A stretch of DNA of 64,000 bases from an uncultured virus (IMG/VR IMGVR_UViG_3300029305_011567) (taxonomy: Duplodnaviria > Heunggongvirae > Uroviricota > Caudoviricetes): the IMG/VR virus record IMGVR_UViG_3300029305_011567. One strand, 5' to 3'. Positions 27,133 to 36,761 of the stretch are shown here, piece by piece. The position numbers were made by a program, and so were the translations under genes. Positions within the stretch are counted from its first letter, which is position 1, and each line of letters starts with the position of its first letter. The notes under the pieces are model-generated. The model did not search any database, was not told where the DNA came from, and saw only the letters and a list, made by a program, of their open reading frames with translations.

Positions 27133-27600
27133 ATGAAAAAGGGAAAATATTATTTGACTGATTTGGAACGGCTGGGAGCATCCTTTATTTATGAAAAAGT
27201 GGTTTTGAAAGATTTATCCGGAACGCATTACTCCGGTATGCTTATGATGAACGGAAAAATGTATCGTTCGTGTGTCGTGCGTAATCTGTTTGGGACAGGC
27301 TATTTGTCCGGCATTGTTGAAGATAACCCAAGCAGTCGCAGTAATCGTGATGAAATTCATAAATATATTATGGACCGTATTGCATCGGGAGAGTGCCCGG
27401 AATTTGAAAAAGCTGCTCTTAATAGAACTGTGCAAAAATTTTTATTTAAGATACTGTTTTTGATATGCCTTATTTTTTCCATTTTCTTCGGCGCACAGCT
27501 CCATAAATATCCGTGTCGCGACGCTTTTATTTCATTTATTTTACCTGTTATCTGTTGTATTGTTTCTGTACGTGCCTACATAGGAGCGTGCCGAATTTAA
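27133..27600 (+). CDS. Membrane protein, paralog of 31032-31517
   Basis: Two C-terminal TM helices; shared D.ER.G..YEK...G.L..NGK...V.R.L.G motif. Confidence 0.6.
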   Translation: MKKGKYYLTDLERLGASFIYEKVVLKDLSGTHYSGMLMMNGKMYRSCVVRNLFGTGYLSGIVEDNPSSRSNRDEIHKYIMDRIASGECPEFEKAALNRTVQKFLFKILFLICLIFSIFFGAQLHKYPCRDAFISFILPVICCIVSVRAYIGACRI

Positions 27601-27617
27601 AAAGGAGTGTGGATATT

Positions 27618-28526
27618 ATGAGAGAACCAAGTGAATATTTACAATCAGATACTCTGGATATGATTCAGACATTCTTATTGACTTGCAAACAGAGCCGAAC
27701 TAGGACTTCTTATTTTTCATGCCTTAATATTATCTGTGATTTTTGTCATAAGGATTTCTTAGAAATTGATTATGAGGATGCGCGAGCATTCTTTGATAAT
27801 ATGCAGTCCCAGTATTATAATCAAAGTATCACGCATGGTACAATATGTGTACGCCTTTCTTGCTATAATTCCTTTGCAAAGTTTGTAATGCGTAATTATC
27901 CGGAATGTGAATATAAAAACCCGTTTTTGCTGATTCCTCGTCCTGTCATTGACACGAAAATCAATCCGCGCCGCATTCCGTCGCTTACGGAACTGGATTC
28001 AGTGCTGACAACGGCAAAATCCATGTCGTCCATGTACTATGTGATTCTGATATTTGCGCTGCGCATGGGCTTATCTATTTCAAAGATTGTTAGCATAAAA
28101 AAGAGTCAGATTCTCTGTGAAGCAGCAGGCATGTTTTTATACTTACCAGCAAGTGACAGTACTAAAAATGACTTGTATGTAAAGGTTCCGGAAGATGTTC
28201 GTCAGGTTCTTGAAGATTACATTGCTAATATACCTTTTTCGGATGAAGAAGGTCACATCTTCTATAATAAATGGAATAATCCATTATCTATCAAAAATGC
28301 CGACGAATTTATCCGCGTGATTATGAGCAAGAGTGACGTTCTTGGCAAGTATACAATCAAAGATCTCCGTAGTCGTGCCATATTGGATATGGTTGAAGCT
28401 GGTGCCGATACCGAATCCATTGCAACATACACCGGATTGTCTAATATGCGTGTGCAACAGTTTTGTAATGCCAGCGGTATTGTTGGTGCTTGTCCTGCGG
28501 AACTTGTCAATTTACGTGTTGTGTGA
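27618..28526 (+). CDS. Tyrosine recombinase/integrase-like protein, catalytic residues degenerate
   Basis: SAM-like N-domain; ALRMGLSISKI, TIKDLRSR, GADTESIATYTGL...VQQF. Confidence 0.75.
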   Translation: MREPSEYLQSDTLDMIQTFLLTCKQSRTRTSYFSCLNIICDFCHKDFLEIDYEDARAFFDNMQSQYYNQSITHGTICVRLSCYNSFAKFVMRNYPECEYKNPFLLIPRPVIDTKINPRRIPSLTELDSVLTTAKSMSSMYYVILIFALRMGLSISKIVSIKKSQILCEAAGMFLYLPASDSTKNDLYVKVPEDVRQVLEDYIANIPFSDEEGHIFYNKWNNPLSIKNADEFIRVIMSKSDVLGKYTIKDLRSRAILDMVEAGADTESIATYTGLSNMRVQQFCNASGIVGACPAELVNLRVV

Positions 28527-29343: not shown

Positions 29344-30408
29344 TGTAGGTTTGTCAAACATTTGTTACACCCGATGCCAAATAATCCTGTAGCACTTGAT
29401 TGGGTGTTTTCCATCCAAGCGGTCTCATGGGGAAATGGTTGTAATCCCTGCGGTTATACACTTTCAGTTGGTGTGCGAAGTCTTTAAAAGAATAGAAAGA
29501 ATGTGTGGCATAGAAGCGTTCATTATCCTTTCTGTGGCTTCTTTCAACTTTGCCATTATGTCTTGGTGTAAAAGGACGAATTACTTTGTGCCTGATTCCA
29601 TAACGCTCCAAATGAACCTGAAACATGGTCGGTTTATCACGGTGAGTAGTAAATCGGTTCGTGAATTCCGTACCGTTATCGGTTTGGATACACGCAATAG
29701 GAAGAGGGAATGCCTTTACCAGATGATCCACGAACATGGCAGAAGAATAAGTGTTATGTTCTTCAAAAGCTTCGACAAAACGCCATCTGGAATATTCGTC
29801 AATGGCAGTATACTGAAAGAACTGCTTGCCGATCACCTTGCTGTTAACAAGGCATGCAGAAGGAACAAACTTTACATCAACCTGTATACGCTGACCGGGA
29901 TAATTCATTGTTTCATAAGGCTTGGGAATATACTTTGGGTTAGCAGGATGAACTGCCATAATACCCTGTTTACGAAGGAAACGATATAGTCCCGGAATGG
30001 AACGGGAATAACCACGCTGCATGAGTTTTACCCAAAAGACAACAAGACCGGCATCGGGGTTTCGTCTGCGCATATCCATGATGAGTTTCATTTCCTCAGG
30101 AGTATGCTGATTAGGATGGTGATGAGGTCTGCGTGATTTTTCACGCAAGGACTCTATAGAGCCATCGTAACGGCGTTTCCAACGATAAATATATTGCCTG
30201 TTGGTTTTGTACTTGATGGCAGCTTTGGTGACACCAAATTTTTCAGCGTATTTAATAAGCGATAGACGATATCTCATATCCTGTGTTATACTAGCCATGC
30301 GGGGAAGCTCCTTTATGTTTTTTGTTTTGTGGTGATTCAAATATAACACAAAGAGCGTATCCTCGCTTTTTAATTATTCAGTTGTAACACATGTATTGTA
30401 ATCCTACA
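29344..30408 (-). mobile_element. IS481-family insertion sequence
   Basis: 26-bp imperfect terminal IRs starting TGTAGG; single DDE ORF; 25-bp flanking direct repeat. Confidence 0.88.
29354..30298 (-). CDS. IS481-family DDE transposase
   Basis: N-terminal HTH; QVDVK, QTDNGTEF, NGKVERSH. Confidence 0.92.
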   Translation of the reverse strand: MASITQDMRYRLSLIKYAEKFGVTKAAIKYKTNRQYIYRWKRRYDGSIESLREKSRRPHHHPNQHTPEEMKLIMDMRRRNPDAGLVVFWVKLMQRGYSRSIPGLYRFLRKQGIMAVHPANPKYIPKPYETMNYPGQRIQVDVKFVPSACLVNSKVIGKQFFQYTAIDEYSRWRFVEAFEEHNTYSSAMFVDHLVKAFPLPIACIQTDNGTEFTNRFTTHRDKPTMFQVHLERYGIRHKVIRPFTPRHNGKVERSHRKDNERFYATHSFYSFKDFAHQLKVYNRRDYNHFPMRPLGWKTPNQVLQDYLASGVTNV

Positions 30409-33338: not shown

Positions 33339-33516
33339 ATCTTATCTCTCTTGTTCTTGCGACGTCGCAATATTTTTTCACATTTGTATATAATAATATT
33401 CTTGTTGCCTTGCGATAACTCAAAATATTTTAGTTGGATATGAACCTATAAATTCCGTTCAGTAGCCTTGTTGTTTGGCAATATTCCAAAACCAATGCTG
33501 CGTTTACGTTGATACC

Positions 33517-33620
33517 GTTCAGTAGCTTTGTTGTTTGGTAATATTCCAAAACATCAAATAGCCTTTGCTGAGTGGAAATAGTTTCCCTCAGCCTTCGGCA
33601 GCTGAATCTGCCGGGTATAT
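33517..33620 (-). ncRNA. Cas12f guide-RNA scaffold + repeat, unit D
   Basis: Conserved scaffold CCCGGCAGATTCAGCTGCCGAAGGCTGAG...CTCAGCAAAGG fused to repeat. Confidence 0.75.
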
Positions 33621-33740
33621 ATTATGTTATTTTAGCTCGTTATAGATGCTCTGTCTGCATTGCAAGTGCATTGTTTTAATTGCCATGAAACATTTTGCAA
33701 TTTCCAAAACCCAATGCTGCGTTTACATTGCAACCTATCG

Positions 33741-33844
33741 GTTCAGTAGCTTTGTTGTTTGGTAATATTCCAAAACATCAAATGACCTTTGCTGAGTGGA
33801 AATAGCTTCCCTCAGCCTTCGGTAGCCGAATCTACCGGGTATAT
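33741..33844 (-). ncRNA. Cas12f guide-RNA scaffold + repeat, unit C
   Basis: Same scaffold with compensatory stem CGGTAG/CTACCG. Confidence 0.75.
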
Positions 33845-33957
33845 ATTATGTTATTTTAGCTTGTTAAAATTGATTCTGCTTACATTGCAAGCACATTATT
33901 TAAATTGCCGTGTAGTATTTTGTAATACTCCAAAACTGAACAACTATTTTAGATGCA

Positions 33958-34060
33958 GTTCAGTAGCCTTGGTATTCTGCAATACTCAAAACATCAAAAG
34001 ACCTTTGCTGAGTGGAAATAACTTCCCTCAGCCTTCGGCAGCTGAATCTACCGGGTATAT
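33958..34060 (-). ncRNA. Cas12f guide-RNA scaffold + repeat, unit B
   Basis: Same scaffold, more diverged repeat. Confidence 0.7.
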
Positions 34061-34156
34061 ATTATGTTATTTCAACTCGTTTAATGTACTTCTGTCTGTT
34101 TTGGAATATTACACGATGCTTTAAAATATAGACATCTGTTCAAAATTGCATTTTAT

Positions 34157-34260
34157 ATTCAGTGGCTTTTTTTGTTTGGCAATATTCCAAAACATCAAAT
34201 AGCCTTTGCTGAGTGGAAATAGTTTCCCTCAGCCTTCGGCAGCTGAATCTACCGAGTATA
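34157..34260 (-). ncRNA. Cas12f guide-RNA scaffold + repeat, unit A
   Basis: Same scaffold, beginning about 9 nt after the cas12f stop codon. Confidence 0.75.
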
Positions 34261-34268
34261 TATTTATC

Positions 34269-35447
34269 TTATACAAAGTCCTTTGACAATGCAACCTGTT
34301 TACCTAAATCGCGTTCTGTCTTTATAGATATGGTTTCATTTTCCGTTGGAACATCAAGTGCTTTTACTTTCTGCACGATTATACCATGCAACGACGCTTT
34401 GTACTCCAAAAACTGTTGAATCATATAAAAGGAACCTTGTAACAAAACATTCTCTTTTTCGTCCATATCTTCCACATGAATATATTTTGCTTCATTTTGA
34501 AGCGCAAAGTCTATGATGCGTTTGGTTATCATATGATTATAAGTCCGCGCAAAGTGGGCTTCATGCCGACCTACCCTGTCAAGTGCACGCAATTTTTCCT
34601 TACGTCCATGCCCGCCTTTTGCATCACGCAGCGCTCTTTGTAACCGGCTACGCTGTGCTTTGATTTTTGTGCGCATACGGCGGAGTTCATCACTACTTCC
34701 TATTAATTCGGTGGCATATTGATTATTATTTACTCCGCATACAGCCGGTATTGTTTCACCAAAATACACACCTACAACAGTATCTTCTTTTAGGGCATGT
34801 TCTTTTACGGGAATTGACAGGCAAAGATTTATCATTATCTTTTTACCGGTTTTGTCAAATTGAATGCCGCTTTGCTGAACCAGATAGTTTTCTTCAAATA
34901 TGTTTTTCAGTACACTCCTTAATTCCGCGGATCGGTGCGGGTTTCCAAGAACTACTCGGAATTGAATTTTATTAACCCAGTGAAGATATATTTCCAAATC
35001 CTGCTTGTAAAGATGTTCTAAAAACTCTGTATGGCTACTATACGGGTGCTTAAACTTGAGTGCTGTTTTTGCTGTCATAACGGGCATATCTCTTTTGTAG
35101 TTTCTAATAGCCCGCTCACCTTTGGCAAGTCCATTTTTAACATCATTCATAAAATCAGACTGTATACGGTGGGTGAGTAATGCTTTTGTTCCCAACCCAG
35201 TTTGATACTCGATGTCGTCTAACAGCGGATTGTGGTAATTATTCCTCAGACGGTCTTTAAATTCCTCATTTTTGATATCCCTTCCGCACTCATAATATTT
35301 ACTGGCAATCTGCCCCATTAACGTATTCATGGTGATATACTGGGAATACTGCGCATCACGGATAAATTTGTATACTCTTTGCACTTCTTCCTTGTCACCA
35401 ATCGGATAAAGCTGTATTTTTCTTGTGATAGTCTGTCTGTCTTTCAT
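34269..35447 (-). CDS. cas12f: Cas12f/TnpB-family RNA-guided protein, predicted nuclease-dead
   Basis: ITRKIQLYP N-terminus, G.R.IRNYK, GGHGRKEKL, YNH.ITKRIIDFA, IHVED, LEYKA..HGI.V; RuvC-I reads VGVYFG; no Zn-ribbon cysteines. Confidence 0.85.
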   Translation of the reverse strand: MKDRQTITRKIQLYPIGDKEEVQRVYKFIRDAQYSQYITMNTLMGQIASKYYECGRDIKNEEFKDRLRNNYHNPLLDDIEYQTGLGTKALLTHRIQSDFMNDVKNGLAKGERAIRNYKRDMPVMTAKTALKFKHPYSSHTEFLEHLYKQDLEIYLHWVNKIQFRVVLGNPHRSAELRSVLKNIFEENYLVQQSGIQFDKTGKKIMINLCLSIPVKEHALKEDTVVGVYFGETIPAVCGVNNNQYATELIGSSDELRRMRTKIKAQRSRLQRALRDAKGGHGRKEKLRALDRVGRHEAHFARTYNHMITKRIIDFALQNEAKYIHVEDMDEKENVLLQGSFYMIQQFLEYKASLHGIIVQKVKALDVPTENETISIKTERDLGKQVALSKDFV

Positions 35448-35471
35448 TTAATAACCACACTCCTTTTTACT

Positions 35472-36533
35472 TTAAATAGCCGTATTCTCATTTGCTCTGT
35501 ATCTTCCCAAATGTTGCCGATCCCAGCTGTAATGGCTGATATACCACAGGATATCTTTCATTGTCATATTACTTCTTTGCAAATGTCTGCCCATTGTGAT
35601 ATAGCGTTCATTGTCATTCACCATAACGTAGTTGTTATGATAAAGGTTGTATTCTCCGTCATTTTTGCTTTCTTTAATTAGCCATGATTCCTCTTTTACA
35701 AATACAATCATTTCTTCCGGCGTATTCATATGAAGTTGAAAGCCTTGCTGATATAAACATACTTCCAACTGCTGATTGCTTACATTGCCTTTATTAAAAA
35801 ACCGCAGATACCGCTCAAAATGTTTGGAACTGCTTTTGATAGCGTTACGGATATAGATTTTTCTTCTGCAATGCGTACATAAGTGTCTACCTTCTAAGAC
35901 GGTACTTGCCGCGCCAAAATCTTCATTCCGTATATGCTTTACCAGTTCGCATGACTTGTCATGGATATACTGGTTTTTCTTAGAATATACAAACCGTACC
36001 TTGTGGTCTGCCATTGCTTCCACCCGCTTGCTTAACAGATATTCTGTACTTGCATCGGTGCTGATATCGGAATATTCAATCGTATCGTTCTTTCCTATTA
36101 CCGCTTTCCTTTGTGGTTTTTCCACTAAGGATAAATCTACCGGGACAAAACTGTTATTCTGCCTTATGTTACTGTTAAGTGTATTTGTATACACCCTGCT
36201 TTTTATGTACTTCCAGTTCTTATTAAAATCCTGCTTATAGACATATACGTTCTTCTGCCTTTTATCAATCATGCATGGAACTTTTGTCGGTTTGGGCGGA
36301 TTTTTACTACTTGCCACCATATGTAGAATATAAATACAGCTTTGTTCTATTTCTGATAACGCTTCCACCTTGTCTGTCACTTCCCGTTCATTTTCATACG
36401 GGCAGAACGTATATCCCTTTAGCTCGTCACAAAATACGGCTTTTCTATCATCGGTATGAACAGGTAATTTCCAGTTGAGCATGTAGTGAAAGCGTTCACT
36501 GTTTGTATCAATCATTTCACCATCCACTTGCAT
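35472..36533 (-). CDS. Hypothetical protein with H..SC...CxxC metal-binding motif
   Basis: IHDKSC...LCTHC; 24 bp upstream of cas12f on the same strand. Confidence 0.65.
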   Translation of the reverse strand: MQVDGEMIDTNSERFHYMLNWKLPVHTDDRKAVFCDELKGYTFCPYENEREVTDKVEALSEIEQSCIYILHMVASSKNPPKPTKVPCMIDKRQKNVYVYKQDFNKNWKYIKSRVYTNTLNSNIRQNNSFVPVDLSLVEKPQRKAVIGKNDTIEYSDISTDASTEYLLSKRVEAMADHKVRFVYSKKNQYIHDKSCELVKHIRNEDFGAASTVLEGRHLCTHCRRKIYIRNAIKSSSKHFERYLRFFNKGNVSNQQLEVCLYQQGFQLHMNTPEEMIVFVKEESWLIKESKNDGEYNLYHNNYVMVNDNERYITMGRHLQRSNMTMKDILWYISHYSWDRQHLGRYRANENTAI

Positions 36534-36761
36534 CCGCCTCCTTCCTTATTTTTAAGATTACGAATTTTCCATAAACCAGTCATTTTCATCGCAGCACTCG
36601 ATGATCCGCTCTATCAGATTTTGAAAGTCCTGAACTTCTCCACATTCCACATCAAATGCCATTTATCATGTTATGTGCTCCATCGGCACATATTTTAGCA
36701 AATCTTGTTAATTCCGATTTTCTGTATTCCATATAAATTCCTCCTTACGAAGCATAAGTGT

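Follow-up and report, generated by a model that had tools for sequence, protein, structure and literature searches.

Which effector is served by the repeated RNA units behind a small open reading frame of this viral DNA, and how far have their tracrRNA and crRNA become one molecule? The window, meaning the whole 64,000-nucleotide stretch analyzed here, carries on its minus strand a tandem series of four guide units (A to D), the first of which begins 15 nt beyond the stop of the open reading frame at 34269-35447. The units are spaced 201-224 nt apart. In each, a 6-bp stem 1 closes a loop of 6 nt and is joined by the linker AAG to stem 2, from which a tail of 14 nt leads into a repeat of 35-37 nt. 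From stem 1 to the repeat end the handle measured 96-98 nt, shorter than the ~105 nt of the original prediction. The interval given there, 33553..34260, covers the series in part: both the repeat of unit D (33552-33517) and a further repeat, E (33492-33457), lie outside it. The features are as follows.

34269-35447, minus strand: Cas12f of 392 amino acids, nuclease-dead, with lesions in RuvC and zinc finger.
34157-34254, minus strand: unit A, tracrRNA core (34254-34194) and a degenerate 37-nt repeat (34193-34157), without a second repeat after it.
[quoted passage not shown]
33958-34053, minus strand: unit B, tracrRNA core and a variant 35-nt repeat (33992-33958).
33899-33957, minus strand: spacer B (21 nt, 33957-33937) and a worn trailer repeat (about 33936-33899).
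33741-33837, minus strand: unit C, tracrRNA core and a 36-nt repeat (33776-33741).
33673-33740, minus strand: spacer C (30 nt, 33740-33711) and a worn trailer repeat (about 33710-33673).
33517-33613, minus strand: unit D, tracrRNA core and a 36-nt repeat (33552-33517); the loop at 33607-33602 pairs with repeat bases 31-35.
33493-33516, minus strand: spacer D (24 nt), a diverged duplicate in which 21 of 24 bases equal the 3' part of spacer C.
33457-33492, minus strand: repeat E, a lone, full 36-nt repeat, the fifth of the series.

The inverted repeat copy is a trace of inversion or rearrangement. The linkers before units C and D (33874-33895 and 33650-33670) hold TTGCAATG...GCAG, like the core of spacers C and D; this likeness could be due to a shared origin by duplication or to a self-regulatory site. 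A promoter scan stayed at chance level (9 sites against 8.4 expected, none standing out), no Rfam family was matched in the window, and IMG/VR scans with the window scaffold and the window repeat gave 0 matches each.

The structural elements named in the original prediction are all present in the sequence. Stem 1 is CGGCAG/CTGCCG in unit D (33613-33596), CGGTAG/CTACCG in unit C (33837-33820), and CGGTAG/CTGCCG in units A (34254-34237) and B (34053-34036). Its loop reads ATTCAG in units A, B, and D and ATTCGG in unit C, stem 2 is GCTGAG-GGAA...TTCC-A-CTCAGC in all four units, and the repeat ends in CTGAAC in units B, C, and D and in CTGAAT in unit A. A third helix that had also been proposed, TTTGATGTTTTGG with CCAAACAACAAAG, exists literally in units C and D but not in the other two: its site is a run of A in unit A, and the unit B repeat differs and folds on itself. 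Compared with 200 shuffles per unit, the folding z scores were -6.1 (D), -3.9 (C), -2.7 (B), and -5.1 (A). The opposite strand of unit D also scored -3.8, so folding energy alone does not give the strand. The compensatory changes claimed at the outset amount to a single two-sided change among the four window copies, which supports the fold weakly; the real support comes from homologues.

An alignment query yielded 194 loci, the closest of which lie in Clostridia genomes and on contigs of gut phages, many of these contigs 80-190 kb long. A motif script was applied to the 172 loci, the window among them, with an identity of 32% or more; in 112 it located scaffolds on the downstream side of the gene, 139 in all, and 83 of them had an array. 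Covariation was assessed in 30 aligned cassettes, four from the window and 26 picked for compact length. Pairing was present in 94.9% of 805 cells, and 19 of 28 pairs had two-sided changes; none of 500 shuffles scored as high, and slid partners were paired at 35-47%. Stems 1 and 2 were selection criteria of the script. Free of that bias are the counts for the pseudoknot, where pairing reaches 97.9% and compensatory changes occur in 4 of 5 pairs, and for the anti-repeat helix, where these values are 87.7% and 6 of 9. The proposed pairing of the loop with the repeat end was borne out: the loop pairs with repeat bases 31-35, with full complementarity in 15 of 17 distinct sequence types, compared with 12 in the best of 20,000 permutations, and both misses are misregistered repeats. 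Covarying variants include ATTTTG/CAAAA, ATTTCG/CGAAA, ACTTTG/CAAAG, ATTTGG/CCAAA, and ATTCAG/CTGAA.

A covariance model from homologous loci, the check suggested with the prediction, was trained on 34 non-window sequences. It found exactly units A to D in the window (E 1e-11 to 1.3e-10), the next window match having an E value of only 0.65, and it also matched the tracrRNA of a Cn-like Cas12f on a Clostridium sporogenes plasmid. In 97 related loci all 169 matches lay on the gene strand (the 34 training sequences match by construction), often flanking the gene on both sides and with up to several per locus. Handles of 100 nt or less occurred in 7 of 34 distinct cassettes (median 114.5 nt), several of which adjoin intact nucleases. 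Given these matches and cassette lengths across related loci, tandem cassettes and short handles are features of the clade and not special to the window. In each cassette the first repeat is likely to be fused in cis, as originally predicted, because only 14 nt separate stem 2 from the repeat; the fold is documented by covariation, and a continuous guide transcript would follow from this geometry.

Side observations on cassette architecture were made in related loci. Several intact relatives have runs of two to four consecutive tracr-array cassettes, in which every cassette has a repeat of its own and a loop to match (L086:7221-8300, L087, L156, L166, and L110), and many loci have further cassettes upstream of the gene. 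In L058:5690-5838, L059, L061, L063, L066, L067, and L180 the upstream cassettes contain an insertion of ~40 nt inside stem 1 and keep the ATTCAG loop and CTGAAC repeat end of the window.

The protein encoded next to unit A was compared with known structures. In phmmer searches its best matches were CnCas12f1 (8HR5, E 1.3e-60) and RhCas12f (9NZP, E 6e-58), with AsCas12f1 entries at E ~3e-14. The predicted fold (pLDDT 84) matched 8HR5 in Foldseek with E 5e-28 and a TM score of 0.73. The protein has the Cas12f fold and, through C-terminal loss, is slightly shorter than the 400-700 amino acids expected of the family. Two of the three catalytic residues are missing: the RuvC-I Asp is replaced by Tyr (Y228) and the RuvC-III Asp is lost, while the RuvC-II Glu (E326) is kept. 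The zinc finger is lost as well, with no CxxC motif left, so that the protein lacks the intact RuvC D-E-D triad and zinc finger of a type V-F nuclease. Among the matches listed, 112 of 120 relatives keep the RuvC-I Asp. The PAM of RhCas12f is read by D77, R117, and R119, according to the accessible text of PMC13186708. These C-rich-PAM readers are kept in 86, 83, and 90 of 111 relatives, respectively, and align to G86, A126, and T128 of the window protein in the phmmer alignment; because all three are missing, DNA binding may be altered or lost.

Conservation in 90% or more of 109 intact relatives marks 105 positions; the window protein retains 69 of them, and the residues that it lacks are concentrated around the catalytic site and zinc finger. 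P0001, the protein of a sister strain, is full length, has 96% identity, and shares the lesions; its 16 changes are mostly conservative. The contig of sequencing run X8 differs from the window at 72 positions over 34235-35600; among the in-gene changes listed, 6 of 9 are silent and 3 match P0001. The intact frame and the mostly silent changes suggest that the dead Cas12f is maintained between strains. In a FastTree phylogeny of 40 proteins the window pair sits on a long branch (0.63) inside the active Clostridial clade, and other dead proteins occupy several separate branches; many inner supports are low. A script flagged 15 related loci as dead; four of these, L008, L030, L130, and L146, look like frameshift or script artefacts and were left aside. 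A reading of the units as IS200/IS605 omega-RNA was rejected: true arrays occur in relatives, and the locus has no transposase gene at its flanks.

In sequence and fold, then, the closest known systems are the type V-F enzymes CnCas12f1 (Clostridium novyi) and RhCas12f1 (Ruminiclostridium herbifermentans), and the window units are of their tracrRNA core kind, nearer to them than to AsCas12f1. As far as their published descriptions are accessible, the Cn and Rh tracrRNAs share with the window a 6-bp stem 1, a 6-nt loop that pairs with the repeat end, a 5-nt linker, and a TGAG...CTC stem 2; CnCas12f1 further shares the AAGGC-TGAG linker and the bulged stem 2. Common to all is the order gene-tracr-array without cas1 or cas2. 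In the window, too, a tracrRNA with stem 1, pseudoknot, stem 2, and anti-repeat lies between gene and array, and the arrays, of one or two repeats, have variable spacers, with others in runs X8 and X10. The window differs from these systems in its dead protein without zinc finger and PAM readers, in its four cassettes, and in the lack of an extra stem between stem 2 and the anti-repeat, the tracrRNA abutting the array. Its repeats are 36 nt long with 30-nt spacers, compared with Cn/Rh repeats of 29-30 nt ending in ATGTAAAT, as far as available text gives them; a Cn-like plasmid locus has 30-nt repeats, 35-37-nt spacers, and a tracrRNA ~200 nt from the array. Such Cn-like Cas12f proteins, annotated only as TnpB and with the same tracrRNA core, were seen at NZ_CP013241.1 232,900 (L203) and on five related Clostridium plasmids, all of them large C. 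sporogenes and C. botulinum plasmids.

The likeness to AsCas12f1 on which the original prediction relied is real in the 5' stem-loop, the loop GTTCAG, and the repeat end GTGAAC (accessible part of the PMC10090079 supplement), but AsCas12f1 differs in a far more distant protein, five stems, a longer RNA, and a T-rich PAM. The shared TGAAC end is one of many covarying variants in the clade. According to the same supplement, the 5' core is common to CnCas12f1, RhCas12f1, and AsCas12f1, and the CnCas12f1 sgRNA scaffold is 111 nt long; its accessible rows contain neither GATTTTG nor ACAAAAC, the commonest loop and repeat end of our clade. Stem 1, pseudoknot, and stem 2 are described as the conserved core of Cas12f1 guides (PMC12255294). 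The structure itself is of a known kind, because core, fusion, and tandem guides are described in the available portions of PMC10090079, PMC12255294, PMC10691335, and PMC13472631.

Unlike those of Cn and Rh, the arrays are type II-A-like. Neither this nor the dead nuclease had been mentioned in the original prediction. Across the clade, arrays begin 14-50 nt after stem 2, repeats are of a 36-nt GTTT...AAC type, and 73 of 88 spacers are 30 nt long; window spacers measure 21, 30, and 24 nt (B, C, and D) and sister-strain inserts 28-31 nt. Among 49 cassettes with the first repeat defined without any leader condition, TTGAG directly precedes that repeat in 16 and T(T/C)G(A/G)N does so in 27; neither precedes the second repeat in any of them. 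The junction ATTTGAG/GTTT is that of group 1 II-A leaders and is required for adaptation in Streptococcus thermophilus, as stated in the accessible text of PMC5382924. The leader end in window units A, C, and D is ATTTGAT/GTTT, differing from the ATTTGAG/GTTT of the clade. The leader-repeat-spacer pattern was found in 17 of 301 genomes of the Lachnospiraceae, the family of the Roseburia genome, and in none with the reversed control; csn2 lies directly upstream of it in all 17. Clade repeats agree with host II-A repeats at 15.1 of 28 inner positions, compared with 10.7 for shuffled repeats (maximum 11.7). The window repeat agrees at only 12 of 28, near the shuffle maximum, and its 5' half beyond GTTT is unlike host II-A repeats. 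Searches by tblastn with one host's Csn2, Cas2, and partial Cas1 revealed no cas1, cas2, or csn2 in the window, in the 194 loci, or in 1.57 Mb of 12 phage records, and the cas9 with cas1/cas2/csn2 that a type II-A locus would have was not found in the window locus.

At the clade level, then, the tracrRNA appears to double as the array leader, ending in the II-A motif TTGAG|GTTT, and the window arrays look built to borrow the spacer-capture machinery of a host. Borrowing of this sort has precedents: plasmid type IV-A uses host I-E adaptation (PMC11656645), and a type VI-B array with a type II-like leader and repeat uses II-C Cas1 in trans (Hoikkala et al., PMC8092290), to judge from the accessible text of both. 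Here the putative borrower is a V-F system on phages and plasmids, the donor II-A, and the leader the tracrRNA. II-A-type arrays with Cas12f were not found in the literature searched, most subscription papers lying outside that search; the CnCas12f1 structure paper (Su et al.) or the 2022 viral CRISPR survey (Al-Shayeb et al.) may already describe the clade. In distant relatives from Bacteroides and Phocaeicola (L011 and L013-L016) the repeats are of a 36-nt GTTG...CAAC type with ~30-nt spacers. The Cn and Rh enzymes have 30-nt repeats of an I-B-like kind. Because repeat types differ among the Bacteroides/Phocaeicola, Cn/Rh, and II-A-like branches, the sequences suggest that Cas12f branches switch adaptation donors.

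Spacer turnover and targets were then considered. Word shares were small in runs X8 to X14, of which X8 and X10, from two other studies, were compared with the window. In these two, copies of the window repeat enclose four different inserts of 28-31 nt; the array therefore differs between strains, of which at least X8 shares the dead protein. For active relatives, a 5'-CCN PAM is a lead with n = 2. The overlap of two spacers gives the flank AACCA; this 19-nt overlap matches two array copies and seven stretches with non-matching flanks. An L058 spacer nearly matches two phage sites (3 and 5 mismatches) with flanks AACC and CACC; the reversed spacer as control gave 3 matches at up to 6 mismatches, one of them with 2, and the pseudoknot register of this cassette type is shifted by one base. 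Window guides matched inside the window at shuffle level only, with or without a CCN PAM, and gave chance matches only, scaffold apart, in blastn searches of INPHARED phages and PLSDB plasmids. Exact IMG/VR scans with guide C/D, two sister-strain spacers, and one relative's spacer returned 0 each, as did guide C in 401 genomes with 2 mismatches allowed; the five genomes behind related loci gave chance matches only. The L086 array stretch matched mostly homologous cassettes in 48 virus records. The sequence that follows repeat E has a 10-nt seed match at 36741, which was discounted as due to chance.

Window genes include a sortase, DnaX, NrdD/G, LPD1, a tyrosine recombinase, and a replication-relaxation gene whose only plasmid match is a 144-kb Butyrivibrio plasmid (26%). 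The Cas12f protein was found on contigs of up to 154,925 nt, and window DNA occurs in animal faecal runs, with no RNA run among the 14 listed; a Lachnospiraceae-type megaplasmid is the likely home of the locus. An open reading frame of 353 amino acids (35472-36533, minus strand) lies 25 nt upstream of the dead cas12f and is probably cotranscribed with it. It matched no family and has no match in the 194 loci; an atlas search returned unnamed clusters and weak Ada zinc-binding leads only. An IS481-like integrase-core transposase (29354-30349, minus strand) and the tyrosine recombinase (27513-28526, plus strand) lie 3-6 kb downstream of the cassettes.

Taken together, we consider it somewhat more probable than its contrary that the locus is a binding-only RNA-guided effector of a mobile element of gut Clostridia, with arrays that borrow host II-A adaptation and that are part-way to fused single guides. 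Each unit would be a compact tracrRNA that also acts as the leader of its own CRISPR mini-array, and read-through into the first repeat would yield a natural single guide of stem 1, pseudoknot, stem 2, anti-repeat/repeat helix, and spacer. The adjacent Cas12f, two of its three catalytic residues lost, would bind this guide and act through DNA binding only, presumably blocking transcription or replication of competing plasmids or phages as Cas12m and type IV do. New spacers would most likely be inserted by host II-A Cas1-Cas2-Csn2, drawn by the II-A-like leader end and repeat. This strain would show fourfold duplication of the cassette and arrays worn down to a single spacer apiece. Such a path would be a Clostridial parallel to the sigma-linked dCas12f route from a Cas12f array to fused guide arrays. 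Against this reading stand the failure to find targets, the lost PAM readers, the leader end TTTGAT, the repeat agreement of 12/28, the lack of a promoter that stands out, and signs that look like wear: the short spacers B and D (21 and 24 nt), the duplication of C in D, and a unit A devoid of any real spacer.

Cas12m (V-M) and plasmid type IV-A resemble it as mobile-element CRISPR systems without cleavage, with other protein families. To our knowledge, neither needs a tracrRNA of this kind.

Unlikely, in our estimate, is that the RNAs serve an intact nuclease in trans (a Cas12f encoded by another part of the element or by a phage in the same cell, or else host Cas9, for which the II-A-like repeats would be mini-arrays), with the dead protein a bystander, chaperone, or guide-sequestering decoy. 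The ATTCAG loop and CTGAAC repeat end do occur beside intact nucleases as well (L058, L106, and others), the window is only part of an element found on far longer contigs, the protein has kept residues on the RNA side but not its PAM readers, and viral mini-arrays using host effectors are known (accessible text of PMC11656645). Yet a Pfam scan of the 59 open reading frames of the window showed no second cas12f-type gene, unit A begins directly behind the stop of the dead gene, and the tracrRNA of host Cas9 would pair poorly with the window repeat because its 5' half beyond GTTT differs from II-A repeats.

The chances are slimmer still for a domesticated, fixed-guide transcription regulator of the TldR or dCas12f-sigma kind, directed at set host or element genes and no longer adaptive. 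TldR proteins are TnpB-derived, use omega-RNA, and have fliC, csrA, or oppF neighbors; the window Cas12f nests among CRISPR-linked Cas12f and matches them neither in family nor in neighborhood. Catalysis loss, array shrinkage, tracr-repeat fusion, and duplication are described for the sigma-linked clade (Altae-Tran et al., PMC10691335), as are 85-105-nt tandem guides of dCas12f, with mention of array-linked dCas12f (Hoffmann et al., PMC13472631), each in the text accessible; tandem fused guides behind a dead Cas12f are thus a described end state. The window shares with dCas12f-sigmaE and the array-linked dCas12f of Bacteroidetes a dead, C-terminally truncated RuvC and guide units directly behind the gene; for those systems, the same partial texts have single guides of 85-105 nt that are sometimes tandem and a proposed origin by tracrRNA-repeat fusion. 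Guides C and D, moreover, are near-duplicates, and a separate dead branch (L009) has a sigma-70-like gene right behind its array. The dCas12f-sigmaE protein is distant, though (9N9C, E 2e-14), the window protein being nested among active Clostridial enzymes, and despite the fusion geometry of its units the window keeps full 36-nt repeats and arrays with variable spacers. Spacers vary between strains instead of staying conserved, and PAM-flanked seed matches in the window did not exceed shuffles. Adjoining cas12f there was no sign of a sigma, csrA, fliC, or oppF partner, nor of a partner operon with rpoE or HTH, and the flanking 353- and 416-amino-acid open reading frames had no sigma match in Pfam or NCBIfam.

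The L009-type branch (L009:5587-8011, also L160, L161, L162, and L179) has the RuvC-I Asp changed to Asn and the third Asp to Glu; in L009 and L162, which were read, a scaffold and worn array are followed by a 173-amino-acid sigma-70-like gene (weak Sigma70_r4_2, E 6e-4). It is a possible Clostridial parallel to dCas12f-sigmaE. Another derivative, without zinc finger and third Asp (L129:7563-8100 and L127:3040-3370), belongs to the P0038 cluster of 75 members; upstream of a topoisomerase-like gene it has tracr-repeat units, two or three in tandem, that end in TTGAT|GTTTT, as in the window. These units are interleaved with what we take, by their motif, to be IS200/IS605 right-end remnants.

Least probable of all is a decaying relic with nothing functional left, for although short and duplicated spacers, degenerate repeats in units A and B, the inverted repeat fragment, the branch length of 0.63, lost PAM residues, and the lack of targets would fit it, the frame is intact in strains ~5% apart with mostly silent changes, stems and pseudoknot are kept in all four copies while spacers and linkers diverge, and sister strains hold distinct full-length spacers.

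Beyond the binding-only effector that we favor, a wider account can be offered tentatively, as a rather doubtful whole. On gut phages and megaplasmids the tracrRNA would be a II-A leader mimic, a 60-nt RNA gene that both scaffolds the nuclease and lures host Cas1-Cas2-Csn2. Cassettes would be duplicated as modules, and the nuclease would have died several times independently. A CCN PAM would suit Cas9-selected prespacers inserted backwards, because 5'-CCN is the reverse complement of the Cas9 NGG PAM. The window would then be a dead, still-adaptive, binding-only system with a changed PAM, nearing fused single-guide arrays.

For tool builders, named as a possible audience for the compact handle, the intact relatives of 407-470 amino acids, with natural handles of 94-104 nt and interchangeable loop/repeat pairs, offer more than this dead protein. 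For the biology of the family, two open questions become testable. One is how a Cas12f without cas1 gains spacers, where the sequence points to host II-A with the tracrRNA as leader. The other is how CRISPR nucleases turn into RNA-guided regulators, for which dead and active relatives, and arrays and fused guides, occur within one shallow clade.
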